Source: an uncultured Cytophagia bacterium
Lineage (GTDB): Bacteria; Zhuqueibacterota; Zhuqueibacteria; Thermofontimicrobiales; Thiofontviventaceae
DNA: 64,000 nt
Direction: 5' to 3'
Assembly (NCBI GenBank): GCA_964498785.1
Contig: CAZCJL010000020.1
Location: 4,946 to 68,945 of the forward strand
The translations under genes and the position numbers were made by a program. How positions within the stretch are numbered: the first letter of the stretch is position 1; the number at the start of each line of letters is the position of its first letter. The notes beneath the pieces are model-generated. The model had not been told where the DNA came from and did not search any database. It was given only the letters and a program-made list of their open reading frames with translations. This document shows positions 3,466 to 27,225 of the stretch, one piece after another.

Positions 3466-3917
3466 AAACACAATTAATGGGTCATATAAGATATATTATG
3501 TAAACTGGCGAATTTATTATTCACTTTTCTTCTAAACGCTCACGAAATTCTCTCCGTGCTAATACATACTTTTACAACATTTAAACCTCTTGTTTATTAA
3601 TTTGTTAAAGTTATTTCACCTATTAACCATAAATGTTTTACAATGAACACGCTGTTTCATGATGAAACATTAAATTATTCCTACCTCACATAATTATTAC
3701 ATATAAGGCGTTGATATTTATAGTACTATGATTCTTGAAGCGTTTGGCATCATATTTGTTAATAAAATAGAAATATTATGATACTTAACTAACTGAAATA
3801 TTTTAATTAACTAAGAGCACTACAACTGGTACTATGTTCAATATCGCACGGAAAAGGCATATTCACAACTTTTATTTGGCAAAGACAGTCAAAAAAGCTC
3901 CACATATTGAAGAAACA

Positions 3918-4844
3918 ATGAATTATGGAGTTAATTTAAAACGATCAGTAGTTATATCTTTATTATTAATAATTATTTGTTTCAATTTATATCCTTATTA
4001 TACGAAACAAAAAATCTATAAAAAAATACAAGATATTTCAACATTAGAGGTTATCGATATTCCTGTTATCGAGTTAGAACAGCCACCACCACCTCCGGTT
4101 AACATAGTAGAGCCAATGACGATGGTCAAAGTTGAAGAACCAAAAGTCGACAAGGAAAATCTGAAAGAAGAAATTAAAGAAATGGATCTTAAATTGGATA
4201 TAGCAAATGATGATAATGAATTGTTATTGGCAAGTTCTCAATTGGGTGATTTCGGCTCTTTAAGTTTCTCATCGAGAAATATTGATCGTCAATCAATGGG
4301 ATCATTGGACTTAGAGTATAGTCGATCTCGTCCAAATCTCAATTCGGGAAACCCCCTTTCGTTAGATCTTGGTTCGCCGGATGCAAAAGTCAATAAAAAA
4401 TATAAGGAAAAATCAATTAATTTAGATACAAAATCGTTGGTCGCTCAAAATAAACCGAAAAAGCCAAAGAAACCAATATCGAATTACGAGTCAAATTTAG
4501 AAAAAGTTATTCAAGTAGATAAAGATCAATTTTTATTACGAGAGTCTGAATCAACAATTGGCACCACAGAATTTAAAACATGGAATCGAATTAACGCGGT
4601 TCTCGACCGTCTTAATAAAGATCGTTATGGTGAATTGCCTGTAAATGTCAAACGTATTTCCAATGGACTGGCAGTTTCATTTTCCTACAGAAATGGGAAG
4701 GCTCATGATATTTTTTGGTCAAAAGGCGGAAAAGTAATTATTCGTGTTACCGGAGCACAACCAAAAAGCAATATCGATGAGTTACAAAGAGCGTATGACG
4801 CTTTATTGCGGTTGTTGTACAAAACAAATTCTTCGACGTCATGA
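3918..4844 (+). CDS. Hypothetical membrane-anchored protein with Pro-rich and Lys-rich linker
   Basis: Tracked ORF is 3834..4844. The likely start is the Met at 3918 (MNYGVNLKRSVVISLLLIIICFNLYPYY, one N-terminal TM helix). The rest contains PPPPPV and KKPKKP low-complexity segments. No recognised catalytic motifs. Confidence 0.4.
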   Translation: MNYGVNLKRSVVISLLLIIICFNLYPYYTKQKIYKKIQDISTLEVIDIPVIELEQPPPPPVNIVEPMTMVKVEEPKVDKENLKEEIKEMDLKLDIANDDNELLLASSQLGDFGSLSFSSRNIDRQSMGSLDLEYSRSRPNLNSGNPLSLDLGSPDAKVNKKYKEKSINLDTKSLVAQNKPKKPKKPISNYESNLEKVIQVDKDQFLLRESESTIGTTEFKTWNRINAVLDRLNKDRYGELPVNVKRISNGLAVSFSYRNGKAHDIFWSKGGKVIIRVTGAQPKSNIDELQRAYDALLRLLYKTNSSTS

Positions 4845-5536
4845 CTAAAATCAAATGCTTAATAATTATGTTACTTTTCTTTACATTATTTCTTCCTCTT
4901 TCCGCACAAGAAGTGCATAACATTTTTTCAAAAGTAAAGATTGAATTCACAAATCAAAATTATCATGCAGTGTTAAATTTATGTCGCGAAATTGAAAGAA
5001 TATGTAGCATAAATCCTGTTTCAGAATGTTATTTTACAAATGTGATGAAAAATGTTTATCGCTATAAGGGATTATCTGAATTTGAAATTTATAAACAAGA
5101 ATTAAAGCCGAAAAGACTTGAAAATTCTATTCAATCGCTGGAAATTAGTTATGGTCTTTATCGTGATGCAGAAATTTTATATACGTATGGGTATCTATTA
5201 GCGGTACAAGCAATATTATTGAAAAATGTGAATGATTTGGATGGTCTTGTTAAAGCCTGGAAAGGAATTATTGAATTATATGGCCATAATAACTGGCAGG
5301 TAAATAAAGATTTAATTGAAAAAATTAAAGACTACATTAAAGTGACTGAAAAATTTGTTATTAAAGTTCCGAGTAAGAATTATGGGGGGCATTATGCAAA
5401 ATTTATGATTGTCATGGCATGTGATTTAGCGGAAAATGCTCAGTTGAACTACGATGATCAAAATTTTTTTAACACATACAAAAAAAAATATAACACAAGT
5501 AAAATTAATAGGTTAATAGATAAGTTAACGGAGTAG
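4841..5536 (+). CDS. Exported hypothetical protein (paralog family A, short member)
   Basis: 231 aa with an N-terminal signal peptide (MTKIKCLIIMLLFFTLFLPLSAQE). The whole protein aligns by eye with the N-terminal ~200 aa of the next gene product (NLCREIERICS…CYFTNVMKNVYRYKGLSEFEIY… vs NLCKQIILRCE…CRYTDVMKQVYQFKGFSEYKLY…; NDLDGLVKAWKGIIELY vs NLDGLVNAWRGILGLY). Confidence 0.5.
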   Translation: MTKIKCLIIMLLFFTLFLPLSAQEVHNIFSKVKIEFTNQNYHAVLNLCREIERICSINPVSECYFTNVMKNVYRYKGLSEFEIYKQELKPKRLENSIQSLEISYGLYRDAEILYTYGYLLAVQAILLKNVNDLDGLVKAWKGIIELYGHNNWQVNKDLIEKIKDYIKVTEKFVIKVPSKNYGGHYAKFMIVMACDLAENAQLNYDDQNFFNTYKKKYNTSKINRLIDKLTE

Positions 5537-5541
5537 CTGTT

Positions 5542-6987
5542 ATGAGAAAGTTTGGTTCTCTTTTTTTAGTGCTTTTCATCTTAATTCTCTCAACTTCTCA
5601 TTTACATGCACAGAATGTAAGATCACTGTATAATAAAGTGAAAAAAGCGCACAAAGAAGATAATTTTGCCACTGTGGTAAATCTTTGTAAACAAATAATT
5701 TTGAGATGCGAGCAAAATTATCCTGATGCCGAATGTCGATATACAGATGTTATGAAACAAGTATATCAATTTAAGGGTTTTTCAGAATACAAGCTCTATT
5801 TAAGGGAAAATAATCTGGATCGTCTTGAAGACGCTATCAATTCGCTTATTAAAAGTTATGATCTTTATGGTGATCCATACATTTCCTTTAATTTCGGTTA
5901 TATGCAATCATTATTAGCGATCAAAAGAGAAGATGGCCGAAATCTAGATGGACTTGTGAATGCATGGAGAGGTATTTTAGGATTATATGCAAATGAAGAA
6001 TGGTCTGTGTCTAACGATCTGCTTGACAAATTAAAAATCTTCACCCAGCAGTCAGTTGAATTAGCGATTACACCGTCTGATAGTGCTTTTACCACTGGGC
6101 GCTTTAATGGCTTTATGATTCAATTAGCTTGTGACCTGGCAAAAACTCGCCGGTTATCCCGGGAGGATAGTCTGTTTTTCAACATCTACTATAGTCGAGC
6201 TGTTGAAGATGAAATAAATTTACGGGGAAATGAGTGGCGAGCCCGAGGATTTTCAGCACAAAAGCTTTTCAAAGAAAATCCAAATGATTCTACTTACAGA
6301 GTGGCGCGGAAGTATTTGGAGCTTGCTTTTCGTTTTGCAAAAAGCGCTCAAAGACAGGCTGAAATGTTGAAAGAACTTACCAAAGTTGCACTTTACATGG
6401 AAAAATATGGAAAAAAAAGCCAAAGAGAAACCGAACTACAATATGCACGGGAAAAAGCAAGTCAGGCCTATGCAATCTTAATAGAACATAGCTCTGATAT
6501 TGACCGTGAGTTAGAAAATGAGATCAAAAAAGTATATGGTAATGCAATCTTTCGGCTTGTTGATTACTATTTTAGTATGGCAACGGCAAAAGACCGCATG
6601 AATGCGTTTTACCGTGCAAAACGAGTTGGAGACGAATTATTAGTCTCGGATGGTAGCGGCGGACTTGTGCAAAAATTCGAATGGGAAGGTTATGAGGACT
6701 TGTATCTGAAACTATCTGATGTAGGTTACGAAATTGGCGAAGAACATTTCGCAGTCGATATGGTAGATAAGGCCTGGAAAGCAGCTTTAAAAATAAATAA
6801 AATTACCCTACCACAAATTTACGGGGCTGTCCCCTCTCAAAAGGCCAAAGAATTATTACAGTTTGCCCAGGTATATCATCAGATCGCTGAACGTTTTGGT
6901 TTACAATCAGTTTTACACTGGTTGCGACCGATTATTAAAAATCTGACGAATAAATCAGTATTAACTTCATCAGGAGGCGCATATTAA
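5542..6987 (+). CDS. Exported hypothetical protein (paralog family A, long member: A-domain plus a helical C-terminal extension)
   Basis: 481 aa with a signal peptide (MRKFGSLFLVLFILILSTSHLHAQN). The N-terminal domain is paralogous to the 4841..5536 product. The C-terminal ~280 aa are predicted helical with no recognised motif. Confidence 0.5.
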   Translation: MRKFGSLFLVLFILILSTSHLHAQNVRSLYNKVKKAHKEDNFATVVNLCKQIILRCEQNYPDAECRYTDVMKQVYQFKGFSEYKLYLRENNLDRLEDAINSLIKSYDLYGDPYISFNFGYMQSLLAIKREDGRNLDGLVNAWRGILGLYANEEWSVSNDLLDKLKIFTQQSVELAITPSDSAFTTGRFNGFMIQLACDLAKTRRLSREDSLFFNIYYSRAVEDEINLRGNEWRARGFSAQKLFKENPNDSTYRVARKYLELAFRFAKSAQRQAEMLKELTKVALYMEKYGKKSQRETELQYAREKASQAYAILIEHSSDIDRELENEIKKVYGNAIFRLVDYYFSMATAKDRMNAFYRAKRVGDELLVSDGSGGLVQKFEWEGYEDLYLKLSDVGYEIGEEHFAVDMVDKAWKAALKINKITLPQIYGAVPSQKAKELLQFAQVYHQIAERFGLQSVLHWLRPIIKNLTNKSVLTSSGGAY

Positions 6988-7523
6988 TGAGATGTCGAAT
7001 CAGATGTTTGATAATCCTATTGACAATTTGTAATATATCCTTAATTTGGGGGCAGTCGGTTTTTGAGACAACTTTTGAAAAACAAATGATCGATTATGAA
7101 TATGATGTTGTTCGAACCTATAATGAACTACAAAAGTTTTTATACGATTGCGAACCGAATTCCGCTGAACAGGAAGCATTTGAAAATCTGCTTTCGATTT
7201 ATGTTGATAGAATACTGGAAATTTATAGCACCATGCAAAGATTATCTGGTTCAACACTTGAAACATATCGTGGTGTTGCCGCACGTGCTTTAATATTTCG
7301 GACATTGACCTATTTAGAACAATCCAAAACATCAGAAGAGCATTATCGTAGAGCTGCAGATGATTATAAACAGGCGCTGCAACTCTATCAGAAAGGTCGA
7401 AATATCCCTATCATGAATAAAAGATTACCCTATGAAGTATGGATTGGCAAAAAGATGTATACTCGCCTCTCAGATTTATTGGATGATAAAAGTAAAGGGT
7501 TTGATTTGTTAGATTCTTTTTAA
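6987..7523 (+). CDS. Exported hypothetical protein (paralog family B, short member)
   Basis: 178 aa with a signal peptide (MRCRIRCLIILLTICNISLIWGQS). Homologous to the N-terminal domain of the next gene product (ILEIYSTMQRLSG…AARALIFRTLTYLEQS…YRRAADDYKQALQLY vs ILEIYETLTLSS…AARSLIFRALTYLEKA…YEKACYDYYRALDMY). Confidence 0.5.
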   Translation: MRCRIRCLIILLTICNISLIWGQSVFETTFEKQMIDYEYDVVRTYNELQKFLYDCEPNSAEQEAFENLLSIYVDRILEIYSTMQRLSGSTLETYRGVAARALIFRTLTYLEQSKTSEEHYRRAADDYKQALQLYQKGRNIPIMNKRLPYEVWIGKKMYTRLSDLLDDKSKGFDLLDSF

Positions 7524-7557
7524 TGATAAAAATATTTATTTATAATCGGGTAGTTAA

Positions 7558-8811
7558 ATGAAAACGCATATTAGTAGTTTACTAATTACATTCCTGGTAA
7601 TTCCTTTCTTTTGTTTCGGACAAAGTCATCATAATATTCTCATAAATAAAATGGAGGAATACGAGGAAGATATTCAAAACACATATAGCGAGTATCAAAA
7701 AGTTTATTATGAAAGAAAATCAAGCAAAAGTGAATTACTGGCGTTTGAAGAAATCATTTCTGTTTATGTTTCACAAATTCTGGAAATTTATGAAACACTT
7801 ACGCTATCTTCTATTAAGATGATGGAAAAACCGCGTGATATTGCTGCGCGCTCATTGATATTTCGGGCACTAACATATCTTGAAAAAGCACCACTAAATG
7901 TTGAGTTTTACGAAAAAGCGTGCTATGATTATTATCGTGCACTGGATATGTACAATGAAAGTAATAAAGTCCCTGTAATTTTAAAATCATTGCCTAAACC
8001 AATTCGTGTTGCGAATATTGAATATAAACGTTTAATTGATTTAATTGAAGCAAAAGGAAATGAGTTGTTTTCGTTCGGAAAGGTGAAGATTGTTCTAAAA
8101 AGCTTTAAAATTACATCAAATTTAAATGCAGAGTCTTTTGAATTTATACGCTTTAGCTCTCCTGCCCGGACAAGAAAATATACCTATGATGAGGCCGAAA
8201 CCAGAATTAAGAGTGCTTTTAGCGAAATCCTATTTAACAATAATTCTAATAGTTTCTTTTTGGCATTGCCAGAAGGTTCATATTTTATTCGATCACGCAC
8301 AATTGATAACCCTTTATTTCCCTATTTATCCGCTATTTATGTTCGAGCAAACCAACAACAGGAATATGTTATTGAACCCCTGGTCGATTGGATAATAATG
8401 TACGAAAATCCAACCACAAAACAACCAGATTTTTATAAAGCGAATGATTCTTTCTCCGTGAATGGCCAGGGACAGGGCAATGGTGGTTCTTCTTTTATTT
8501 CAAATTACAACAGGGAAAACAATGAAACTGTAAATCTATCGATAATCGACGATGCTATATCAAATACAATTGAGAATGTTGATATTAATAAAATATTTAA
8601 TTTACGAGATCCCTGGATTCGTAGTCGGTTTGCGAATGTCGCATCAAAAACTATTTTGATGCGCTTATCGTCATCACAATATTATAATAGCTGGAGTAAT
8701 TGGTGGGATGCATGGGAGATTTCTAAAGAAATTACATCTCAATTTAGTCCGGGAAATGCAGTACCAACCGAATTAATACAATTGGTTCATCAGGTTTTAC
8801 TGAAATTCTAA
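7558..8811 (+). CDS. Exported hypothetical protein (paralog family B, long member)
   Basis: 417 aa with a signal peptide (MKTHISSLLITFLVIPFFCFGQS). The N-terminal domain is paralogous to the 6987..7523 product. The C-terminal ~250 aa are unique. Confidence 0.5.
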   Translation: MKTHISSLLITFLVIPFFCFGQSHHNILINKMEEYEEDIQNTYSEYQKVYYERKSSKSELLAFEEIISVYVSQILEIYETLTLSSIKMMEKPRDIAARSLIFRALTYLEKAPLNVEFYEKACYDYYRALDMYNESNKVPVILKSLPKPIRVANIEYKRLIDLIEAKGNELFSFGKVKIVLKSFKITSNLNAESFEFIRFSSPARTRKYTYDEAETRIKSAFSEILFNNNSNSFFLALPEGSYFIRSRTIDNPLFPYLSAIYVRANQQQEYVIEPLVDWIIMYENPTTKQPDFYKANDSFSVNGQGQGNGGSSFISNYNRENNETVNLSIIDDAISNTIENVDINKIFNLRDPWIRSRFANVASKTILMRLSSSQYYNSWSNWWDAWEISKEITSQFSPGNAVPTELIQLVHQVLLKF

Positions 8812-8826
8812 TTAAAAGGAAATAAT

Positions 8827-9810
8827 ATGCGGTTTTTTAAATACATGCTGATTCTGGGATTCTTCCTGTTAGTAGTTGCAAACGTTTCTGGACAAAGTTT
8901 TGATAAAAGTATTTTGAAAAAATATGAAGAGTGTTGGTCCGCTAAAAAAGAAACTACACTACTGGACACAATAAAAGTCGCAATGAGTAAGAAGAAAATT
9001 GAAGAACATTTCAGAAGACATGATTTTATCCAGACTTTTGGATGCGCTTATGAAGAAAACGATATTCAACAAAATTCGATTCGAGCTGTATATCGTGCAA
9101 TCATTCAATCGACTCGGAATCGAAATGTTAAATTAAGAGATGATTTATTAGCTGCTTTACGAGCCAATCCTCCACGTCCGGATAATTTGATGAGAGAATA
9201 TTCGATTTATGTGAATATTCCACTTCAAAATGGTGTAAAAGCAGCCAGATATGAAATTAAAATACTCGATCTCATTGCAGTTTCAACTATTGAATCTGAA
9301 ATGGCGGTTTGGACACGTATCGTTACCCGATTCGCATATAAAGAGGATTTTAACAAAATAAGCGAAACCAAACAGGTAGAGTCGGAATTTGTGCAAGTGA
9401 TGCAAAGGGCACAGGAAATTCTTACTGCTATTGAAAGAAAGAAATTTTCATCAATTAAAAAAATGCTAAATATAGGTAATGTTGCAGATGTTTATCCGGA
9501 GTCAATCGATGATTTAAGTTTTGGAGACTCTATGCATTTATTTGATGAACAAAATCAAAAAAAGACTTATTTAGGGATATATTTGGGCAAAGGCATTTTT
9601 GCAAGTGATTCACCCGATCATGGCGTCGTTGTTTGTAAATTCGGCGAAGAAAGGTTGTATGGGATTCGAATTGATACCAATACATTTCGTCGTACTACGA
9701 CTATTTTTGCAGAATTAAATTACCAGGCCCCTGAAATTATTTTACAATGTTTATTCATTAAATTCGGAGCAAAAAAACCACAAGGATTACCATCGTTGGA
9801 TAATTTATAA
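8827..9810 (+). CDS. Exported hypothetical protein
   Basis: 327 aa with a signal peptide (MRFFKYMLILGFFLLVVANVSGQS). No recognised domain. Last member of a co-directional run of secreted proteins. Confidence 0.45.
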   Translation: MRFFKYMLILGFFLLVVANVSGQSFDKSILKKYEECWSAKKETTLLDTIKVAMSKKKIEEHFRRHDFIQTFGCAYEENDIQQNSIRAVYRAIIQSTRNRNVKLRDDLLAALRANPPRPDNLMREYSIYVNIPLQNGVKAARYEIKILDLIAVSTIESEMAVWTRIVTRFAYKEDFNKISETKQVESEFVQVMQRAQEILTAIERKKFSSIKKMLNIGNVADVYPESIDDLSFGDSMHLFDEQNQKKTYLGIYLGKGIFASDSPDHGVVVCKFGEERLYGIRIDTNTFRRTTTIFAELNYQAPEIILQCLFIKFGAKKPQGLPSLDNL

Positions 9811-12211: not shown

Positions 12212-13435
12212 ATGAGAAAAGCCCTGATTTTTACAATTTTCGTTTTTGTTGTTCTCACATGTAGCCGGAAAAATGAAAAACGGATTGTCGTGTGGCATTC
12301 AATGCGGCCGGCTGCTACAGAGATACTCAAAGAACAATTAAAAATATTTAGCAAAATGCATCCTGATTGGGAATTTCGGGAGCTTTTCTATGATCCGGAA
12401 ACAGCACGCACAAATTTTATTATATCTGCTATCGGAGGAAGCGGCCCGGATTTGTTTTGGGGGGCAAGTGATAATATCGGGCCCTTTGTTGAACTTGAGG
12501 TTATTAAACCCATAGAACCGTATGTCTCACAAGCGTTCCTGGATAGCTTTATAACTGATCCTATCTCCGCAAATACATGGTTTCAAGAACATCTCTATCA
12601 GGTTGCAGACAGAGTTGGTAATCATCTTTGTCTTGTTTACAATAAAAAATATATCGCAAATCCTCCGATAACCATGTCTCAGCTAATTGAAATTGGCCAA
12701 AATTTAATGGCAAATTCTGATTTTCCTGATCTTGATTATGCATTGGCATGGAACTACACGGAACCCTTTTTTGCAATTCCATTCATTGGCGGTTTCGGCG
12801 GGTGGATAATAGATGAAAATAATCAACCAACTCTTAATACACCGGCAACTATTAAAGCAGCACAATTTATTTACGATCTCGCAAATGTCGAAAAAATTAT
12901 CCCAATTGAAAGCGATTATGAAACTGCCAACGCGTTATTTAAAGACGGCCTAACTGCAATGATCATTAATGGACCCTGGTCATGGAACACGTATATTGAT
13001 AACGGAATTGATATCGGAATTGCCCGTATTCCAAAGATTGATGAAACAGGTTTATGGCCCACTCCCATTATCTCACCATTAGGATATTCATTAAATACAA
13101 ATATATATGGGGAAAAACTTAAAATCACTATCGAACTGCTGAAATTCCTTACATCACCTGAAGTAGAACTTCAATTTACGAAATTCATGGCAACAGTACC
13201 TTCACGAAAAGAAGCATTTAAAACCTCATTTGTTACGACTAATGAACTGCTCAGAACTTCAATCACCCAGATTGAAGTTGGAAAACCAATGCCTGTTGTT
13301 ACAGAATTACGGTGGATATGGGATGCAATGCGGCCGGCTTATCAGGGAATTTTTACTGGTAAATATTCACCGGAACAAGCCGCTAATATGATGCAGGAAC
13401 TTGCTGTTAAACTAATAAAAGAAAACAGACGATAA
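12212..13435 (+). CDS. Sugar ABC transporter substrate-binding lipoprotein (MalE-like, family 1 solute-binding protein)
   Basis: 407 aa. Signal plus lipobox (VFVVLTCS). KRIVVWHSM…GSGPDLFWGASDNIGPF resembles maltose/maltodextrin-binding proteins. Followed by two permease genes. Confidence 0.8.
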   Translation: MRKALIFTIFVFVVLTCSRKNEKRIVVWHSMRPAATEILKEQLKIFSKMHPDWEFRELFYDPETARTNFIISAIGGSGPDLFWGASDNIGPFVELEVIKPIEPYVSQAFLDSFITDPISANTWFQEHLYQVADRVGNHLCLVYNKKYIANPPITMSQLIEIGQNLMANSDFPDLDYALAWNYTEPFFAIPFIGGFGGWIIDENNQPTLNTPATIKAAQFIYDLANVEKIIPIESDYETANALFKDGLTAMIINGPWSWNTYIDNGIDIGIARIPKIDETGLWPTPIISPLGYSLNTNIYGEKLKITIELLKFLTSPEVELQFTKFMATVPSRKEAFKTSFVTTNELLRTSITQIEVGKPMPVVTELRWIWDAMRPAYQGIFTGKYSPEQAANMMQELAVKLIKENRR

Positions 13436-13436
13436 A

Positions 13437-14363
13437 ATGGGAACAGTCGGATATTCGCAAAATAATCGATTAGCATATTATTATGCTTTGCCAGCACTTT
13501 TTGTTATGGCGCTGGTCGTGGTGTATCCGTTTATATACAATGTTATCATCTCATTCTCCAATATGAACCTGACGCATTTCAGGGATTGGCAAATTGTGGG
13601 TCTCAGAAGCTACTGGCAGGTATTGACTGACGATACAATGCATTTAAAGCTATTAGGAATACCAGTCCCCGATTTCTGGTATTTTTTTATTAAAACAATT
13701 TTATGGACAGCTTTAAACATCTTATTTCATGTGACGATTGGTGTTTTTCTGGCAATAATTTTAGATAAAGACATTAAAGGAAAAACTGTTTTTCGAACGT
13801 TGCTTATTCTACCATGGGCCGTTCCCCAATATATTACCGCGCTAACATGGCGGGGAATGTTTACCTCCAATTATGGCGCAATTAGTTTGTTTTCTGAAAA
13901 ATTCTTTGATACACAAATTCCCTGGCTAACAACAGAATGGGGCGCTTTTTCTGCATGTCTAATAACAAATATTTGGTTGGGTTTTCCGTTCATGATGATT
14001 ATTGCACTCGGAGGATTACAAAGCATACCTGATGAACTTTATGAAGCAGCAGAAATTGACGGTGCTGCATGGTTCCATAAACTCAAAAATATTACCATTC
14101 CATTACTTAAGCCTGTAATGATTCCGGCAATTACTTTAGGTGTTATTTGGACATTTAATAATTTTAATGTCGTATGGTTGGTTAGCAACGGAGGTGAGCC
14201 GTCGGATACAACACATATTCTCGTTTCCTGGGTTTATAAGTCCGGTTTTACATATATTCGAATGGGTTATGCAGCCGCTTTTTCGATGATCATTTTTGCT
14301 ATTTTAATTGTGTTTAGCTGGAATTTTATTAAACGAACAAAAGCCACAGAAGCTGTTTACTGA
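13437..14363 (+). CDS. Sugar ABC transporter permease (MalF/UgpA-like)
   Basis: 308 aa, 6 TM. EAAEIDGAAWFHKLKNITIPLLKP is the ABC permease EAA signature. Confidence 0.8.
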   Translation: MGTVGYSQNNRLAYYYALPALFVMALVVVYPFIYNVIISFSNMNLTHFRDWQIVGLRSYWQVLTDDTMHLKLLGIPVPDFWYFFIKTILWTALNILFHVTIGVFLAIILDKDIKGKTVFRTLLILPWAVPQYITALTWRGMFTSNYGAISLFSEKFFDTQIPWLTTEWGAFSACLITNIWLGFPFMMIIALGGLQSIPDELYEAAEIDGAAWFHKLKNITIPLLKPVMIPAITLGVIWTFNNFNVVWLVSNGGEPSDTTHILVSWVYKSGFTYIRMGYAAAFSMIIFAILIVFSWNFIKRTKATEAVY

Positions 14364-14668
14364 TGAAATTAATAATACCAACAGAATATAAATGCTATTT
14401 TTTAACTGATAATTTTAAGCAATATAACAAAATAAATCACAAATACATTATTATGCATAGAATAATGGAATATGGTTCAAGTGATGCTTTAAGATGGTTG
14501 TTATCCATTTACTCAAAACATGAGATAAAAGATTTTATCCTTAAAAAGGGAATCAAATATTTATCAAATAAATCACTGACATACTATCGCGTAATTTTGG
14601 ACATATCGGAAGACGAATGGAAACGAATATCCTTACAGAAACGCAGAAATCATTTTTTAGCAAGTTAA
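14363..14668 (+). CDS. Hypothetical protein (AT-rich insertion, ORF 1)
   Basis: 101 aa in a strongly AT-rich stretch. No recognised motif. Overlaps the next ORF by 52 nt. Possibly the partner of the DUF1814-like ORF. Confidence 0.3.
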   Translation: MKLIIPTEYKCYFLTDNFKQYNKINHKYIIMHRIMEYGSSDALRWLLSIYSKHEIKDFILKKGIKYLSNKSLTYYRVILDISEDEWKRISLQKRRNHFLAS

Positions 14669-15243
14669 ATGAAATTGAAATAATCAAACATTTTTATCTC
14701 GGAAATGGAACCGGCCTCGCCTTGCAGATTGGTCACCGGAAAATTAATGAACTAAATTTCTATACAGCCGAAAATCAATATAATAATTTTCTTAAAAATA
14801 CTTTAACTAAAAGTGATTTATATAAATTAATCTATGAAGATTCAAAAAATATTACATTTTCCTATGAAAACAATTTAGTTTATTTTTCTGAACACCCCTA
14901 TCCCCTGCTCGGTTTAGTTAAAAAAACTGAGTGGAATTTCGGATGTTTGGATATTAAAGATATTGCCTGCATGTGTCTTTTTAATATTGTAAGCAGGGGT
15001 TTTATTACCGATTTTATTGACTTGTACTATATTATTTTCAAAAAATACAGTCTTGATCAGATCATTTCTTTTTTTGAAGATAAATATCGTTCCATTTCTT
15101 ATGAAAATCAACTCATTTTGAAAAGCTTAGTCTATTTTGATGAGGCAAATATTCAATCGCGACCAGATATGCTGGTTGATATGAATTGGGGGAAAATTAA
15201 AAATTATTTTACGAAATATGTTAAAGTAATGAATAAACTATAG
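14617..15243 (+). CDS. DUF1814/AbiEii-like nucleotidyltransferase-fold protein (putative type IV TA toxin / Abi-like), possibly with a degenerate active site
   Basis: 208 aa. N-terminal FYLGNGTGLALQIGHRKINELNFY resembles the LKGGTAL…R.SEDLDF motif of DUF1814, with Glu/Asn in place of the two Asp. C-terminal CLFNIVSRGFITDFIDLYYIIFKKYSLDQIISFFEDKY matches the conserved K..AL..R..RDLYDLYYL region of that family. Confidence 0.4.
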   Translation: METNILTETQKSFFSKLNEIEIIKHFYLGNGTGLALQIGHRKINELNFYTAENQYNNFLKNTLTKSDLYKLIYEDSKNITFSYENNLVYFSEHPYPLLGLVKKTEWNFGCLDIKDIACMCLFNIVSRGFITDFIDLYYIIFKKYSLDQIISFFEDKYRSISYENQLILKSLVYFDEANIQSRPDMLVDMNWGKIKNYFTKYVKVMNKL

Positions 15244-15251
15244 AACCTAAT

Positions 15252-16094
15252 ATGCGAAATCCAAGAGACCTATCAAAGGTAGGCAAAACTGGAGCCTATG
15301 TCGTTTTGACTATTTTTACATTGTTTGCCATTTACCCGATTTTACGGGTAATTAGTATTTCCTTGCGACCGGGTGATCGACTGTTGAGCAAATCACTGGC
15401 AATTATTCCGGATGGAGCTTCATTAACGAACTACTATAATCTAATTTTTAATCAGCCATTTTTAAGTTGGATGTGGAACAGCATCATTGTCTCAGCAATC
15501 GTAACATTTGTCGGCGTGGGGTTGGCAGCAAGCGCAGGATATTCTTTTTCCCGCTATAAATTTATCGGGCGAAACTCTGCAATGTTTGGATTAATCGCAA
15601 CACAAATGTTTCCGGCAACAATGTTACTTCTTCCATTATTCATTACTCTTATTAAATTAAAGTTATATGATTCATATTTAAGCTTGATCGTTGCATACTC
15701 CGCAACTGCATTGCCTTTTACAACATGGCAAATGAAGGGTTATTATGATACTATCCCGTTTAGCATCGAAGAAGCAGCAAGCATCGATGGTTCTTCTCAA
15801 TTTGGAACTTTTTGGAGAATCGTGCTGCCATTGGCATCTCCGGCATTGGTTATTACTGCGCTGTTTTCGTTTATGACAGCCTGGTCTGAATATCTGGTTG
15901 CAGCCGTCCTAATCCAGGATCAAAGTTTATTTACACTGCCATTAGGTTTAAAAATGTTTCAATCAGCGATGGAAACATCTTGGGGGCTTTATTCGGCTGG
16001 TGCAGTCCTTGTAAGCATTCCGATTGTGACGCTATTTCTTTATCTGAGTCAATGGCTAATTTCCGGATTAACGCTTGGCAGTGTAAAAGGATAA
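15252..16094 (+). CDS. Sugar ABC transporter permease (MalG/UgpE-like)
   Basis: 280 aa, 6 TM. EEAASIDGSSQFGTFWRIVLPLASPAL is the EAA signature. Partner of the permease at 13437..14363. Confidence 0.8.
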   Translation: MRNPRDLSKVGKTGAYVVLTIFTLFAIYPILRVISISLRPGDRLLSKSLAIIPDGASLTNYYNLIFNQPFLSWMWNSIIVSAIVTFVGVGLAASAGYSFSRYKFIGRNSAMFGLIATQMFPATMLLLPLFITLIKLKLYDSYLSLIVAYSATALPFTTWQMKGYYDTIPFSIEEAASIDGSSQFGTFWRIVLPLASPALVITALFSFMTAWSEYLVAAVLIQDQSLFTLPLGLKMFQSAMETSWGLYSAGAVLVSIPIVTLFLYLSQWLISGLTLGSVKG

Positions 16095-16117: not shown

Positions 16118-17188
16118 ATGAAACAGTGGCTTAGTTTTTTCTCGATTCTGATTCTTATTTTATTTATCAACGGATGCGGCGTTTTTCAACCCGCATGGAA
16201 AAAGATTCAATTATCAAATGAAGAATTAGAGACTATTGAATTGCTAAAAATTGATGATCAGACAATTAAAAAATTAGATGCAAAACCGTTATATAAATTT
16301 AATGAAAAAGAGCTTGATACTTATCTCGGTTACTTGCAATTCATTGAACCCGACCTGCGTAAAAGGATTCAGCATCTCGCCCGAAAATGCATTGGCCAAC
16401 AGTATCAAATTTTTTTACTTGGTGAATTCCCAGTTGAGTTATTCGACTCTGAACCACTTTTTTCTCTTCAAAAAAGCGATTGTGTCGTATTTAGTGAACA
16501 TATATATGCTATGGCGCTGGCATTTGATTGGAAAAGTTTCTTTGGCATGTTACAACGTATCCGTTATAAAAATGGTGAAATCAGTTTAGTAACACGAAAT
16601 CATTATACAGAACTTGATTGGAATCGAAATAATAATTGGCTTGTCGAAGATATTACGGATAAATTAGGCGGAAAATATGTGGTTACTGTAAATTCGACGT
16701 ATGATAAGGCAAAATTTTTTAGAAAATGGGGATTAGGGCGCGATATTCACCCCGATACGCTTAATTGGACTTATATCCCCTATCAACACATTGAAAAAGT
16801 AATTGACAAATTGAAACCCGGTGATTTTGTAAATGTGATTCGTGGAAATGATGAAAGCAAGTGGGTTGGGCATGTTGGATTAATTACCAGGGGAGCTAAC
16901 GGCGAAATCAATTTCCTGCATTCTGCTAAACCAGAAGTTCGCGAACAACCGTTACTTGGATATATGCAGGAGAGTCTGAAATTAAATTTATATCGAAAAC
17001 AAAAGAATCAAAAAATTTATGAATATAATGAAAAGATCATAAAAAATCAATCCGATAAAAAATTAAAGACACCTCTCCCCTATTTTTACGGTTTTAAATT
17101 TCTAAAATTAAGACAGGATCCGTTATGGGAATTGGTAAAAATTGATGGATTTCGGGCACCAAAAGTCACAATCCCTTCAATTTATTAA
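16118..17188 (+). CDS. Lipoprotein, hypothetical. A conserved Cys…His pair suggests a papain-like (NlpC/P60- or DUF1460-like) hydrolase fold
   Basis: Start placed at the ATG at 16118 (MKQWLSFFSILILILFINGCG, signal plus lipobox). The tracked ORF at 15980 overlaps the upstream permease. SDCVVFSEHIYAMALAF and later WVGHVGLI are a candidate Cys/His dyad. Confidence 0.45.
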   Translation: MKQWLSFFSILILILFINGCGVFQPAWKKIQLSNEELETIELLKIDDQTIKKLDAKPLYKFNEKELDTYLGYLQFIEPDLRKRIQHLARKCIGQQYQIFLLGEFPVELFDSEPLFSLQKSDCVVFSEHIYAMALAFDWKSFFGMLQRIRYKNGEISLVTRNHYTELDWNRNNNWLVEDITDKLGGKYVVTVNSTYDKAKFFRKWGLGRDIHPDTLNWTYIPYQHIEKVIDKLKPGDFVNVIRGNDESKWVGHVGLITRGANGEINFLHSAKPEVREQPLLGYMQESLKLNLYRKQKNQKIYEYNEKIIKNQSDKKLKTPLPYFYGFKFLKLRQDPLWELVKIDGFRAPKVTIPSIY

Positions 17189-17199
17189 GGTGTAGAAGT

Positions 17200-17706
17200 A
17201 TGATCGATTCTCAAAAATTAACAAAATCAGAATTACACGATCTTTTAGTCGATGCAGCAAAAAACTGGCTGGCACACGATGGTTTATGGTTTCTTGCCGC
17301 GGAAGAAAAATACGGAATGCCGGCTGCAATTGAACTTGACCGTGAAGCATGGCGAAAATTCACTGTGGTGGAAGCAAAACGAATCATGAAGCGTTTGGGA
17401 ATGGAACCTGGCGGAGGAATTCCGGCGTTAATAACAGCGCTGGATTATCGCCTTTATGCCTATATTAACATACAATCGGTTGAAGCTGTCAGCGCTAATC
17501 GGTGTATTTTTAAAATGAATAATTGCCGCGTACAAGCCGCCAGAAAAATGAAGAACCTCCCTGATTTTCCCTGCAAATCAGTTGGAATTGTTGAATATCG
17601 ATATTTTGCCCAAACAATAGATCCACAAATTAAAACAAAATGCCTTACCTGTCCCCCGGATGACCATCCTGATGATTATTACTGTGCATGGGAATTTACA
17701 ATCTGA
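17200..17706 (+). CDS. Conserved hypothetical protein (DGLWF motif, Cys-rich C-terminus)
   Basis: 168 aa. WLAHDGLWFLAAEEKYG and C-terminal CLTCPPDDHPDDYYCAWEF. Possibly a DUF-type small cytosolic protein. The 3' end overlaps the convergent aminotransferase remnant by 28 nt. Confidence 0.45.
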   Translation: MIDSQKLTKSELHDLLVDAAKNWLAHDGLWFLAAEEKYGMPAAIELDREAWRKFTVVEAKRIMKRLGMEPGGGIPALITALDYRLYAYINIQSVEAVSANRCIFKMNNCRVQAARKMKNLPDFPCKSVGIVEYRYFAQTIDPQIKTKCLTCPPDDHPDDYYCAWEFTI

Positions 17707-18401
17707 TTATGAATATTTTTCAAATTATCAAAATGCTTTTGATTTACATAAAGAAAACCTGTTCCCATTGGCCCAACTAACCATTTCATGCCACCGGCAC
17801 AATAAAAATCGATACTGTATTTGTTAAGCTGTGCCGGGATGGCGCCAACAGCCTGAATACCATCAACGATCAGATACAGACCATGTTCTTTTGCAATATC
17901 TCCTAATTTTGGAAGATTAAGACGGTAGCCGGACAAAAAATGGACATGATCCACAACAATTGCACGAGTATGACTATCAATATTTTCAATTAGCCTCCTA
18001 TAAAAGTTAACCCCGTTGTTTAGCGGAACATATTTTTTTTTCGCAACATCAAAAATATGATGCAGGATATACAAGCTCGCCGGAAATGCGTCGGCTTGTA
18101 CAATTATATTGTCCCCTGCTTTTAAGTCTATCGAGTGCAATGCAATTGATAACCCCTCGGTTGTATTATGAATGAATGCAATTTCATCAGAGTCAGCAGT
18201 AACCATTTGGGCCATTGCTGCCCGGAAGTCATTTAATTTGCTCATTATTTCCTCAATACGGGGCTCACCTGTTTCTACTAATTGATCAATTAACGACTTC
18301 ATGGCTTCTGTGCATTGTAACGGCATCATACCAACAGCAGCATGATTTAAATACGTCTGATTTGATTTATCATTAAAATATTTCCGGAATTTCTTATCCA
18401 T
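17679..18401 (-). pseudogene. Class V aminotransferase (cysteine desulfurase/SufS-like) N-terminal and large-domain fragment lacking the C-terminal small domain
   Basis: 240 aa. YLNHAAVGMMP near the N-terminus, HNTTEGLS, YLIVDGIQAVGAIP and the PLP-lysine region FYCAGGMKWLVGPMGTGFLY are all class V hallmarks. The ORF ends ~30 residues after the PLP Lys, whereas the family is ~380-400 aa. No downstream continuation in any minus frame; the + strand gene occupies the space. Confidence 0.45.
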
Positions 18402-24422: not shown

Positions 24423-27225
24423 ATTAATTCGAAAAATACTGAATATAAATGAAGGTGAAGGATTAAAAGTATTTTTGATGTTTAGCTATATTTTTTTAGC
24501 TATCGCATCTCTTTTAATCGTTAAACCAGTTCGTAATTCTCTTTTTCTGAGCCATTTTGGTGTTGAAAAACTGCCGTACGCTTTTATTTCAGTTGCAGTA
24601 AGTGCAGCTATTTTTACAAATTTCTATTCCAGATATGCAAAGAAAATCCGCTTAAATATATTAATTTTCTATACAACCGTCTCATCCATTTGCTTTTTAA
24701 TTGTATTTTGGATTTTAATATTTTTAAATAGTAACGAAGGTTGGTTTTATTATTTTGTATATGCATGGGTTGCCCTTTTCGGTGTAATCACCACCTCACA
24801 ATTCTGGTTATTAGCAAATTATGTGTTCAATGCTCGTCAGGCAAAAAGATTATTCGGATTGATAGGAGCAGGTGCTATTTCGGGCGGAATCTTTGGCGGT
24901 TACCTGACCAAATTTCTGGCTCCGATAGTTGGAACAGGGAATTTATTTTTCTTTTGCATTTTTTTCCTGCTTCTTTGCCTCGTGATTATGAAAAAAGTCT
25001 GGAAACAAGGCGCCAGACAAACATATTCTGAGCGAATTCAGCAGGAAAAACGTATCCGAAAAAAATTAACTACCGACAAACCATTTGAATTGCTACAAAA
25101 ATCGAAGCATCTTTCGTATATCGCTGCTATCGTTAGCGTAGGAGTAATTGTTGCAAATCTAGTAGATTATCAATTTAGCGCCATTGCAAGTAATATCATT
25201 AAAGACGAAGATAATTTAACTGCTTTCTTCGGATTCTGGCTTTCCAATTTAAGTATTGCTTCACTATTAATACAATTGTTATTAACCGGTCGTAGTCTTA
25301 AAATATTCGGAGTCACGACTTCTCTCTTCTTTCTGCCATTTGGTATTTTAATTGGCGCGTTGGGCATTCTTTTCGATCCCAGGTTATGGTCTGCTGTTTT
25401 TATTAAGGTTTGTGACGGTAGCTTTAAGCAATCCATTCATAAGGCTAGTCTTGAGTTATTAGCTCTCCCCCTTCCAACCTCCTTAAAAAATCAAGGCAAA
25501 GCGTTTATTGATGTTTTTATCGATAGCCTGGCGACAGGAATCGGTGGAATATTTTTAATTATTTTTACGCAACAGTTCGGATTTTCTGTGCAACAAATCA
25601 GTTTTGTTTTAATTATATTCATAATTATTTGGTTTTACTTAATTAAGTCGGTAAAACAGCAATATATCAACTCATTTCGAACAGCAATTGAAAAAAGGTC
25701 AATCGATCTGCAAGATCAATATCTTAATATTCAGGAAGCATCTGTATTAAATAACATTTTAAAAATCCTTGATAGCAAAAACGAGCGACAAATTCTCTAC
25801 ATTCTTCAATTAATTGAAAATGTTAAAAGTGAACGTCTCATCCCTTATTTTAAAAAATTGATCAAACACCGATCCCATGAAATCAAAATACAGACATTGC
25901 GAATGATGAGAAATTATGAACACATTGATTTTGTTGATGATGTACGAAAGCTGACACAGGATTCCAATTTCAATGTAAAAGTTGAGGCGATTCGTTCTAT
26001 TTACGCAAATTCCAAAAACCGAAATCACGATTTAGAAAAATTATTAGTTGATCAGGATATTTTCATTCGAAGTGCGGCCTTACTATCCTCAGCTTATGAA
26101 CACAGAGATAGTAAGGAATTTCGAAAATCATTTAATATTAAAAACTTATTTGATCAATTTGTTGATAAATTTAGTGAGAAAAGTTTTCATCAGGAAGAAA
26201 TTGACTTTATGAAGACTGTCCTTGCAAAGGTAATTGGAATTTCAAAAATGACTGAGCTTTATCCATTTCTAAAAAATTTATTATTCGATAAAAATATAGA
26301 TGTTGTGCAAGAAGCGACAATTAATGCTGGTTTAACCAGACACAAAATGTTCTTCGAGATTCTTATACAATATTTAAACAAACACACTGTCAGAAAATAC
26401 GCTCGTAACGCGCTGGCAGAATATGAGAATGATGTTATTAATCCCCTAAAAAATTTATTGGAAAATGAAAAAGAAGACTATCAGTTGCGCAACGCAATTC
26501 CCAAAGTTTTGGCATTAATTGGAACCCAAGAATCAGTTAATCTATTGTTAGATAACTTGCTTCAGGAAGATTTAGCATTACGGTTTCAAATACTTCGGGC
26601 ATTAAACAGGTTACGAACGAATTTTCCATACTTAAAATTTGGGGACAACCGAATCCGAAATAGTATTGTTTTTGAGAGCAAAAATTACCATAAAATTTAC
26701 TCTTATTTATCAAATAGTGAATTGCTTGATAGCTATAACATCCAACACATACCTGATCATAAAAAAGCAAAAAAATCTCTCGATTTATTATTAACCTTAT
26801 TAAATGAACGTCTTGATAATACTCTTGAAAGAATATTTCGTCTGCTTGGTTTAAAATATTCATCTGGCGATATGTATAACGCTTATAGAGCGATAACAAG
26901 CAATAGCCCGGATTTGCGAGCGAATGCTGTTGAATTTCTCGAAAATATTCTGGACCCGAATTTAAAACGGATTATAATTCCAATTATAGAATATTCAACC
27001 AGTGCTTTGCTATCTGAGGAATTTAACTTCTCCCGAAAAGATGGTATGTTCCTGGAGCTATTAAAAGAAAAGGATTCATGGCTAAAAGTATGTACTATTT
27101 TCTATATTGCCGAGACTAACATGAACCATTATCAATCTGAAATAAAAAAACTAACAATGGATCATGATTCCACTGTTAAAGAAACCGCTGAATACGCTCT
27201 TGATTTATTAATAAATAGAAAATGA
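24415..27225 (+). CDS. TLC-family transporter domain fused to a C-terminal cytoplasmic HEAT/PBS-lyase-type repeat domain
   Basis: Start at the ATG at 24415 (MTKLIRKILNI…). ATGACTAA gives an 8-nt overlap with the upstream stop, suggesting translational coupling. The first ~440 aa have 12 TM, with GLKVFLMFSYIFLAIASLLIVKPVRNSLFL and QAKRLFGLIGAGAISGGIFGG motifs. The last ~500 aa are soluble alpha-helical repeats (e.g. ERQILYILQLIENVKSERLIPYFKKLIKHRSHEIKIQTLRMM…NVKVEAIRSI). Confidence 0.6.
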   Translation: MTKLIRKILNINEGEGLKVFLMFSYIFLAIASLLIVKPVRNSLFLSHFGVEKLPYAFISVAVSAAIFTNFYSRYAKKIRLNILIFYTTVSSICFLIVFWILIFLNSNEGWFYYFVYAWVALFGVITTSQFWLLANYVFNARQAKRLFGLIGAGAISGGIFGGYLTKFLAPIVGTGNLFFFCIFFLLLCLVIMKKVWKQGARQTYSERIQQEKRIRKKLTTDKPFELLQKSKHLSYIAAIVSVGVIVANLVDYQFSAIASNIIKDEDNLTAFFGFWLSNLSIASLLIQLLLTGRSLKIFGVTTSLFFLPFGILIGALGILFDPRLWSAVFIKVCDGSFKQSIHKASLELLALPLPTSLKNQGKAFIDVFIDSLATGIGGIFLIIFTQQFGFSVQQISFVLIIFIIIWFYLIKSVKQQYINSFRTAIEKRSIDLQDQYLNIQEASVLNNILKILDSKNERQILYILQLIENVKSERLIPYFKKLIKHRSHEIKIQTLRMMRNYEHIDFVDDVRKLTQDSNFNVKVEAIRSIYANSKNRNHDLEKLLVDQDIFIRSAALLSSAYEHRDSKEFRKSFNIKNLFDQFVDKFSEKSFHQEEIDFMKTVLAKVIGISKMTELYPFLKNLLFDKNIDVVQEATINAGLTRHKMFFEILIQYLNKHTVRKYARNALAEYENDVINPLKNLLENEKEDYQLRNAIPKVLALIGTQESVNLLLDNLLQEDLALRFQILRALNRLRTNFPYLKFGDNRIRNSIVFESKNYHKIYSYLSNSELLDSYNIQHIPDHKKAKKSLDLLLTLLNERLDNTLERIFRLLGLKYSSGDMYNAYRAITSNSPDLRANAVEFLENILDPNLKRIIIPIIEYSTSALLSEEFNFSRKDGMFLELLKEKDSWLKVCTIFYIAETNMNHYQSEIKKLTMDHDSTVKETAEYALDLLINRK

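Follow-up and report, generated by a model that had tools for sequence, protein, structure and literature searches.

A DUF6922 and short AbiEii gene pair with a degenerate active site inside a sugar ABC transporter operon of an uncultured bacterium

A two-gene insert between the permease genes

The DNA studied here is a 64,000-nucleotide stretch of contig CAZCJL010000020.1 from an uncultured bacterium (assembly GCA_964498785.1), referred to below as the window. It carries a sugar ATP-binding cassette (ABC) transporter operon whose two permease genes, MalF-like and MalG-like, are separated by two small overlapping genes. A solute-binding protein (SBP) gene and the two BPD_transp_1 permease genes stand in a row, and their Pfam matches, together with the SBP-MalF-MalG synteny in 80 orthologous loci, identify a binding-protein-dependent sugar ABC transporter operon. 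The original prediction, made from the letters of the window, had placed two overlapping open reading frames (ORFs) between the permease genes, and the coordinates of both, here called ORF1 and ORF2, were confirmed (Table 1).

The ATG of ORF1 overlaps the stop codon of the MalF-like gene by 1 nt (TGATG), and the ATG of the MalG-like gene lies 8 nt past the stop codon of ORF2. A promoter scan of the insert returned 32 promoter-like sites, where 36.6 would arise by chance, and was uninformative; a terminator scan found none within the insert. Because the packing is so tight, with no room for separate signals and no terminator, ORF1 and ORF2 are probably made whenever the transporter is made.

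As had been predicted, the insert is AT-rich. Its GC content is 0.274 against a window mean of 0.380 (z = -2.6), and it ties for the lowest-GC 881-nt stretch of the window (fraction at or below, 0.0008). Most of the deficit falls on codon positions 1 and 2 of ORF1 and ORF2 (GC1 0.27-0.34, GC2 0.23-0.26), reflecting an amino-acid composition rich in Lys, Asn, Ile, Tyr and Phe. At the third position the GC content (0.27-0.28) is slightly under that of the neighbouring operon genes (0.285-0.366) and inside the range of the window genes overall. The sole other stretch as AT-rich as the insert lies within the block at 3834-9810, which consists of five consecutive forward-strand ORFs (336, 231, 481, 417 and 327 aa) without a Pfam family and also includes the lowest-GC gene of the window (4841-5536, GC 0.279). 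No meaningful direct or inverted repeats and no mobile-element signature were found flanking the insert. When the window was searched with the family hidden Markov model (HMM) for a second intact copy, ORF2 was the sole match besides a weak partial one in a repeat-rich protein (26098-26316), which was judged to be chance.

A scan with the MalF-like protein against one genome per species returned 80 loci. They came from Calditrichota/KSB1-type metagenome-assembled genomes (MAGs) at 69-81% identity and from Ignavibacteriota, Bacteroidota, Chlorobiota-type and other MAGs at 54-65%; the MalF-like orthologues comprise 84 loci at 55-94% identity. Where both permease genes were visible, the gap between them was under 300 nt in 73 of 79 loci (range 0-266 nt), and none of the 80 orthologous loci encodes a relative of ORF1 or ORF2. 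In the nearest relative (L005, 81% identity) about 20-24 nt separate the MalF stop from the MalG start. The ORF1-ORF2 pair was found at the identical junction only in very close relatives, namely in the window's own assemblies (L003 and L004), in two loci with a 94% identical MalF (L001 and L002) and on two short contigs (L165 and L166). The original prediction of permease genes that are otherwise adjacent and of a lineage-specific insert is therefore borne out.

This distribution is explained most parsimoniously by one insertion event, which took place in the ancestor of a narrow Calditrichota/KSB1-like lineage. If the two genes had instead belonged to the ancestral operon and been lost elsewhere, one would expect, as is seen, that every sequence with at least 94% MalF identity has the pair at the same place. 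However, the pair is absent from the 80 orthologous operons of Calditrichota/KSB1, Ignavibacteriota, Bacteroidota and others, the nearest relative included, the family to which it belongs occurs otherwise in unrelated contexts and organisms, for example Patescibacteria, and the composition of the insert is an outlier. Ancestral presence is highly improbable and was rejected.

Inserts unrelated to the pair were seen at the same junction in other lineages. An IS200-like Y1 transposase gene lies between repeated segments in L032 (6870-8072), and genes of the four-helix-bundle type known from 23S rRNA intervening sequences (IVS) lie in L043 (6598-7143) and L023 (3931-4308). A pair of PALP (thrC-like) and GHMP-kinase (thrB-like) genes occupies the junction in L007 (6882-9601) and L021 (6882-9665), and an 80-aa orphan occupies it in L076 (6929-7171). 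The MalF-MalG spacer seems to tolerate or attract small insertions.

Homology of the pair and residues replaced in it

Searched directly against Pfam (PF08843 included), NCBIfam and PADLOC, ORF2 gave no match (E <= 1 for PF08843 and PADLOC), and phmmer against PDB sequences returned nothing. The phmmer search for homologues returned hundreds of them at 33-39% identity over more than 90% of the length, with E down to 2.6e-30; all bear PF08843, and many are from Patescibacteria. A subfamily HMM made from 111 relatives, from which the window sequence and its close relatives (hereafter the clade) were excluded, covers ORF2 positions 2-208 with an E value of 2.6e-45. PF08843 was found in 111 of 114 aligned proteins, and the only failures were three clade proteins; ORF2 has no PF08843 match because the clade has lost motif residues. 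The original prediction had proposed ORF2 as an AbiEii/DUF1814 homologue and named PF08843 as the check. Taken literally the check failed, but the homology stands on the end-to-end match of the clade-free HMM and on the predicted fold. The PADLOC AbiEii models match ordinary subfamily members in all eight cases tested (best E 1e-5 to 1e-9).

The AlphaFold2 (AF2) model of ORF2 has a predicted local distance difference test (pLDDT) score of 95.2 and a predicted template modelling (pTM) score of 0.90. Its top Foldseek matches in the PDB are MenT1 (E 7e-5) and MenT4 (E 1.5e-4, template modelling score 0.60), followed by ANT(2'')-Ia and other pol-beta-type nucleotidyltransferases. ORF2 is thus a member of a short (~205 aa) AbiEii/DUF1814 subfamily with a pol-beta-type nucleotidyltransferase fold. 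A family-profile search of the PDB did not reach the MenT/AbiEii sequences. The C-terminal segment of the family, 'ilksLvYFDd.eeepi.f' (A2 profile 145-194; ORF2 residues ~145-195, nt ~15050-15200), weakly matches the EF-hand loops of PDB centrins (E 0.004-0.02), a resemblance that is probably chance. The same segment is among the parts that the degenerate clade still conserves.

ORF1 passes the gathering cut-off of PF21956 (DUF6922) with 31.5 bits against 27 (E 1.3e-7), and a partner HMM built with the clade excluded matches it at E 4.6e-18. The AF2 model of ORF1 (pLDDT 87) consists of six helices. The DUF6922 model matched nothing in the PDB, MenA antitoxins included, or among the BFVD viral predicted structures, and no paper mentioning DUF6922 was found in the searchable literature. 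The family carries an F-W-D signature near its N-terminus. Of this the clade keeps F13. W14 (69 of 70 relatives) has become L, F or I, D15 (59 of 70) has become T, N or A, and W75 is also changed, to Y. ORF1 is the diverged cognate partner that the original prediction had thought it could be.

We surveyed 80 metagenome loci that encode members of the short AbiEii subfamily (L085-L164). A same-strand ORF ends at the start of the nucleotidyltransferase gene in 76 of the 80, and DUF6922 accounts for 72 of the 73 upstream ORFs that were aligned (70 from the metagenome loci and three clade proteins). Five of the aligned partners have an N-terminal XRE helix-turn-helix (HTH) domain. Over these loci and the proteins P0124-P0240, and according to a profile search, DUF6922 is mostly the C-terminal domain of XRE-type regulators of 170-180 aa; stand-alone forms of ~100 aa lie upstream of short AbiEii genes. 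Among the 76 family loci, at least 15 share the 52-nt overlap in the geometry of the window. Two-gene modules in which a short AbiEii gene follows a DUF6922 gene, laid out like a toxin-antitoxin (TA) operon, are widespread; the window pair is one of them, and DUF6922 is a candidate new antitoxin family for MenT-like toxins.

A programmed -1 frameshift that would fuse ORF1 to ORF2 was also considered, as a T_TTT_TTA heptamer is found at 14650-14656 in the frame of ORF1. It was rejected: in-frame slippery heptamers occur in 13 of 76 family loci against ~23 per control phase, and the first base of the heptamer is not conserved in L165.

The active site of ORF2 was compared with that of 111 aligned homologues and of an independent set of 89 metagenome homologues (about 200 relatives). 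Fifty alignment columns reach a conservation of 85% or more among the 111 relatives, and the clade deviates at 19 of them. Four residues are invariant in all 111 and replaced in the clade: S43 (S43I), D45 (D45E), F49 (F49Y) and K120 (K120C/S). S43, D45, D47 and K120 are also invariant in the independent set (89/89). D47 is Asp in 110 of 111 relatives, with Gly as the single exception, and Asn in the clade (D47N); G30 is Gly in 109/111 and 87/89 relatives and Asn in the clade (G30N), beside A29G. Position 131 is Lys or Arg in 89/89 and 147/147 relatives and Thr in the window (K131T). N30, I43, E45 and N47 are common to all clade members, and position 120 varies among them (C, S, C). Kept in the clade are R41, D115, R127, D132, D135, K156 and the C-terminal YFD core. 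To the original prediction the catalytic Asp positions had appeared substituted (E, N), and this is what we see (NELNF against S.D.DFF in the family).

Four motifs have been described for AbiEii, hG[G/S], R-x-[ST]-x-D-x-D, KLxAaxxR and +DxxD (Dy et al. 2014, PMC3985639). The family sequences A-G-G, R-x-S-x-D-x-D, K-L-S-A-I-x-S-R and K-D-F-I-D correspond to them literally, and in the ORF2 model the motifs follow the expected topology of strand, G[GS], helix and strand. In AbiEii of Streptococcus agalactiae the mutations G49A, D67A/E, D69A/E and K173A each abolish toxicity (PMC3985639). The phospho-acceptor for antitoxin-induced auto-phosphorylation lies between the Arg and the first Asp (S78 in MenT3, T39 in MenT1, T65 in AbiEii); this position maps to S43, which is Ile in the clade. 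Judged from these motif correspondences, the clade appears to have kept neither the carboxylates that bind the metal nor the catalytic Lys, and the essential Gly and regulatory Ser appear to be gone as well.

An exhaustive phmmer search of 1.84 billion cluster representatives placed the clade in a single 50%-identity cluster, with the next match at <=40% identity, and no intermediates between the clade and the family were found among these representatives. At the six key positions (30, 43, 45, 47, 120 and 131), 147 representatives show sporadic single deviations and a few show several (P0325 at four of six, P0353 at three of six); none deviates at all six. P0247 and P0259 are also among the short AbiEii members that deviate at several catalytic or regulatory positions. 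Given these multi-site deviations, catalysis may have been lost more than once in the subfamily.

Table 1. Coordinates of the operon genes, the inserted pair and its motifs (window positions).
Feature	Position	Strand	Remarks
SBP gene of the host ABC operon	12212..13435	+	Pfam SBP_bac_1 and SBP_bac_8, E ~5e-20; syntenic across all orthologous loci
MalF-like permease gene, upstream flank of insert	13437..14363	+	Pfam BPD_transp_1, E 1.1e-15
ORF1, 101-aa DUF6922 protein, antitoxin-type partner gene	14363..14668	+	Pfam PF21956
ORF1 codons 13-15	14399..14407	+	F-L-T; DUF6922 family signature F-W-D
ORF2, 208-aa short AbiEii/DUF1814 (MenT-like) nucleotidyltransferase-fold protein, degenerate active site	14617..15243	+	
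ORF1/ORF2 overlap, 52 nt, out of frame	14617..14668	+	ORF2 in the -1 frame relative to ORF1
ORF2 motif I, codons 29-31	14701..14709	+	G-N-G; family A-G-G (G30N)
ORF2 motif II, codons 41-47	14737..14757	+	R-K-I-N-E-L-N; family R-x-S-x-D-x-D (S43I, D45E, D47N); R41 kept
ORF2 motif III, codons 120-127	14974..14997	+	C-L-F-N-I-V-S-R; family K-L-S-A-I-x-S-R (K120C); R127 kept
ORF2 motif IV, codons 131-135	15007..15021	+	T-D-F-I-D; family [K/R]-D-x-x-D (K131T); D132, D135 kept
MalG-like permease gene, downstream flank	15252..16094	+	Pfam BPD_transp_1, E 1.3e-18

Selection on the pair and its interpretation

Four diverged clade sequences were available for an analysis of selection, in which the ratio of nonsynonymous to synonymous substitution rates (dN/dS) was estimated pairwise, for ORF2 in its non-overlapping part. 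L165 and the window are 82.5% identical over 1231 nt, from the end of MalF through both ORFs to the start of MalG, with zero gaps. The dN/dS of ORF2 is 0.085-0.106, compared with 0.094 for the binding protein of the operon and 0.061 for the DUF6125 gene downstream; that of ORF1 is 0.18-0.27. The synonymous divergence (dS) of the diverged clade pairs is ~0.6-0.95. The variable sites of ORF2 number 31, 18 and 85 at codon positions 1, 2 and 3, and there are no indels or stops in either ORF across the four sequences. When the insert was mutated at random with 150-155 substitutions (162-167 were observed) in 20,000 runs, fewer than 1% of runs left ORF1 open, 0.05% left ORF2 open and none left both open. 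Purifying selection acts on both ORFs.

The data show the homology of the pair, its insertion, the residues it has lost, the selection on it and its tight packing among the operon genes. Together these point to a detoxified, retained pseudo-toxin pair of AbiEii descent that is carried inside a transporter operon, and we regard this reading as likely. On this account a TA-type module of DUF6922 and short AbiEii would have been inserted once, replacing the ~20-nt MalF-MalG spacer. The toxin homologue would then have lost the residues of its metal and nucleotide chemistry (G30N, D45E, D47N, K120C/S and K131T), S43I would have removed the residue needed for antitoxin-induced auto-phosphorylation, and the partner would have lost its own FWD signature. 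Since the catalytic and regulatory residues are gone, the pair is most likely no longer a growth-arresting toxin or an abortive-infection system; since the genes are kept by selection although catalysis appears lost, both proteins, which are probably co-made with the transporter, probably have a role other than poisoning the cell. The simplest mechanism that fits the retained residues would be a binding-only pseudoenzyme role, either in an ORF1-ORF2 complex or in holding nucleotide or RNA through R41, D115, R127, D132, D135, K156 and the YFD core.

Several points weigh against this reading. The mapping of residues between ORF2 and AbiEii or MenT is one of motif patterns, predicted topology and fold match, and not a residue-level structural superposition. 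The presumed non-toxicity of ORF2 is carried over from mutagenesis of a distant homologue, and some pol-beta-type nucleotidyltransferases tolerate Glu at these positions. The selection estimates are pairwise ones, because only four diverged sequences of the clade exist and two of these are close to each other, and the higher dN/dS of ORF1 could be a partial relaxation.

A more specific proposal is that the pair has been exapted as a non-catalytic accessory or regulatory part of the sugar-uptake operon, for example as a nucleotide- or tRNA-binding sensor complex, stoichiometric with the transporter, that links uptake to translational or nucleotide status. We consider this rather doubtful. If it were true, the clade would document how a DUF1814 toxin can become a pseudoenzyme with a host function, and the joint loss of phospho-acceptor, catalytic residues and partner FWD would point to FWD as the usual trigger of toxin auto-phosphorylation in DUF6922, an antitoxin family not characterised before.

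The main rival to a detoxified pair is that ORF1 and ORF2 still work as a TA or abortive-infection module, in which ORF2 is active with a non-canonical site (E45/N47) and is neutralised simply by being bound by ORF1. The two genes are intact, adjacent and under purifying selection, they preserve a gene overlap typical of the family, R41, D115, R127, D132, D135 and K156 are all kept, and the AbiEi-AbiEii structure suggests that steric occlusion could neutralise the toxin without phosphorylation. However, AbiEii loses its toxicity through G49A, through K173A and even through a change as conservative as D67E or D69E by itself, and six such positions are changed together here, for which reason this rival is disfavoured. 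None of the about 200 relatives (111 + 89) is changed at S43, D45 or K120, and only one departs at D47 (Gly); position 120 varies within the clade, as expected of a disused site; and the FWD signature of ORF1 is gone too. The present-day defence or TA function that the original prediction had assigned to the pair is therefore unlikely, the more so as six catalytic or regulatory residues are lost and not two.

It is also conceivable that the two ORFs are kept solely so that ribosomes read through to MalG, with selection acting on operon architecture and translational coupling and not on the proteins. The very tight packing, with 1 nt of overlap at the MalF stop and 8 nt to the MalG start, would suit such a role, as would internal promoter and terminator signals that are no more frequent than chance. 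Coupling, however, needs open frames only and not a dN/dS of ~0.09, equal to that of the binding protein of the operon (0.094), and the orthologous operons function with a spacer of 0-266 nt, which makes this a very unlikely explanation.

A decaying remnant that drifts neutrally, as the words 'possibly decaying' in the original prediction implied, would agree with the loss of the ORF2 catalytic residues and the ORF1 signature motif and with the absence of a direct Pfam or PADLOC match for ORF2, but this highly improbable alternative is refuted by dN/dS values far below 1, by the lack of indels or stops among the four diverged sequences and by a neutral simulation that left both ORFs open in 0 of 20,000 runs.

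Comparison with known systems and significance

AbiE (AbiEi/AbiEii) of S. agalactiae and Lactococcus is an abortive-infection TA system that was assigned to type IV and has recently been reclassified as type VII. Like AbiE, the window pair is bicistronic, with an upstream partner and a downstream gene of the DUF1814/PF08843 superfamily, and ordinary members of the short subfamily show the recognisable four-motif architecture hG[GS], R-x-[ST]-x-D-x-D, KLxAaxxR and +DxxD. ORF2 differs from AbiEii in being ~80 aa shorter, and the window clade has substitutions in motifs I, II and III and at the phospho-acceptor. The partner, a DUF6922 protein of 101 aa, has no AbiEi-like winged-helix or C-terminal domain, and neither ORF has a PADLOC AbiEi or AbiEii match (E <= 1). 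The pair also lies inside a transporter operon and not in a free-standing autoregulated one.

MenAT1 of Mycobacterium tuberculosis (MenA1/MenT1, Rv0078B/Rv0078A) is the best structural match (8an5_B, 8an4), and it likewise has a small toxin (~190-210 aa) with a small separate antitoxin. In MenT1 the Thr two residues ahead of the catalytic Asp is auto-phosphorylated upon antitoxin binding, whereas in ORF2 of the window an Ile stands where the phospho-acceptor would be, and the catalytic Asp pair and Lys are missing. Sequence identity is ~10%, and the DUF6922 model matches neither MenA1 nor any other PDB chain.

A third close system is the DUF6922 plus short-AbiEii module itself, which the window pair fits by HMM (E 2.6e-45 for ORF2 and 4.6e-18 for ORF1), by gene order and by the same 52-nt overlap. 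Ordinary members keep the catalytic residues and FWD, match PF08843 and occur in varied contexts, many of them in Patescibacteria. The window clade, in contrast, stands alone as a single 50%-identity cluster; all six of its key positions are changed, and its site in an ABC operon is fixed. The annotation of module members goes no further than 'AbiEii/AbiGii toxin family protein' together with a hypothetical protein or an XRE regulator. By its sequence, the window pair descends from nucleotidyltransferase TA systems of the AbiE/MenAT type but appears to fail their defining catalytic and regulatory features, and it ought not to be classified among the AbiE defence systems. With the terms tried, the literature gave no earlier example of a DUF1814 toxin that is retained though catalytically dead.

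The transporter genes are followed directly (16118-17706) by an AmiA-like (PF07313) amidase-family gene and a DUF6125 gene (17200-17706). L001 conserves both of them, and L005 conserves the AmiA-like one. No ABC ATPase gene adjoins the operon, so the substrate of the transporter is not obvious. A class-V aminotransferase ORF on the reverse strand (17679-18401) overlaps the 3' end of the DUF6125 gene; it covers profile positions 2-222 of 371 only, being C-terminally truncated, and in L001 only 106 aa of it are called. It is probably a gene remnant.

The pair in the window offers a clean natural example of a TA module that would have been disarmed, with six experimentally critical positions replaced, and is nevertheless kept by selection (ORF2 dN/dS ~0.09), fixed inside a housekeeping-type operon. 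It bears on the domestication of selfish and defence modules and warns against counting every AbiEii homologue as a defence system. DUF6922, a domain of unknown function that is often fused to an XRE HTH, emerges as the regular and structurally novel upstream partner of a large short-AbiEii subfamily, a by-product that could prove of greater interest to TA research than the locus in the window. The paired losses in the window clade suggest which residues should be mutated first.

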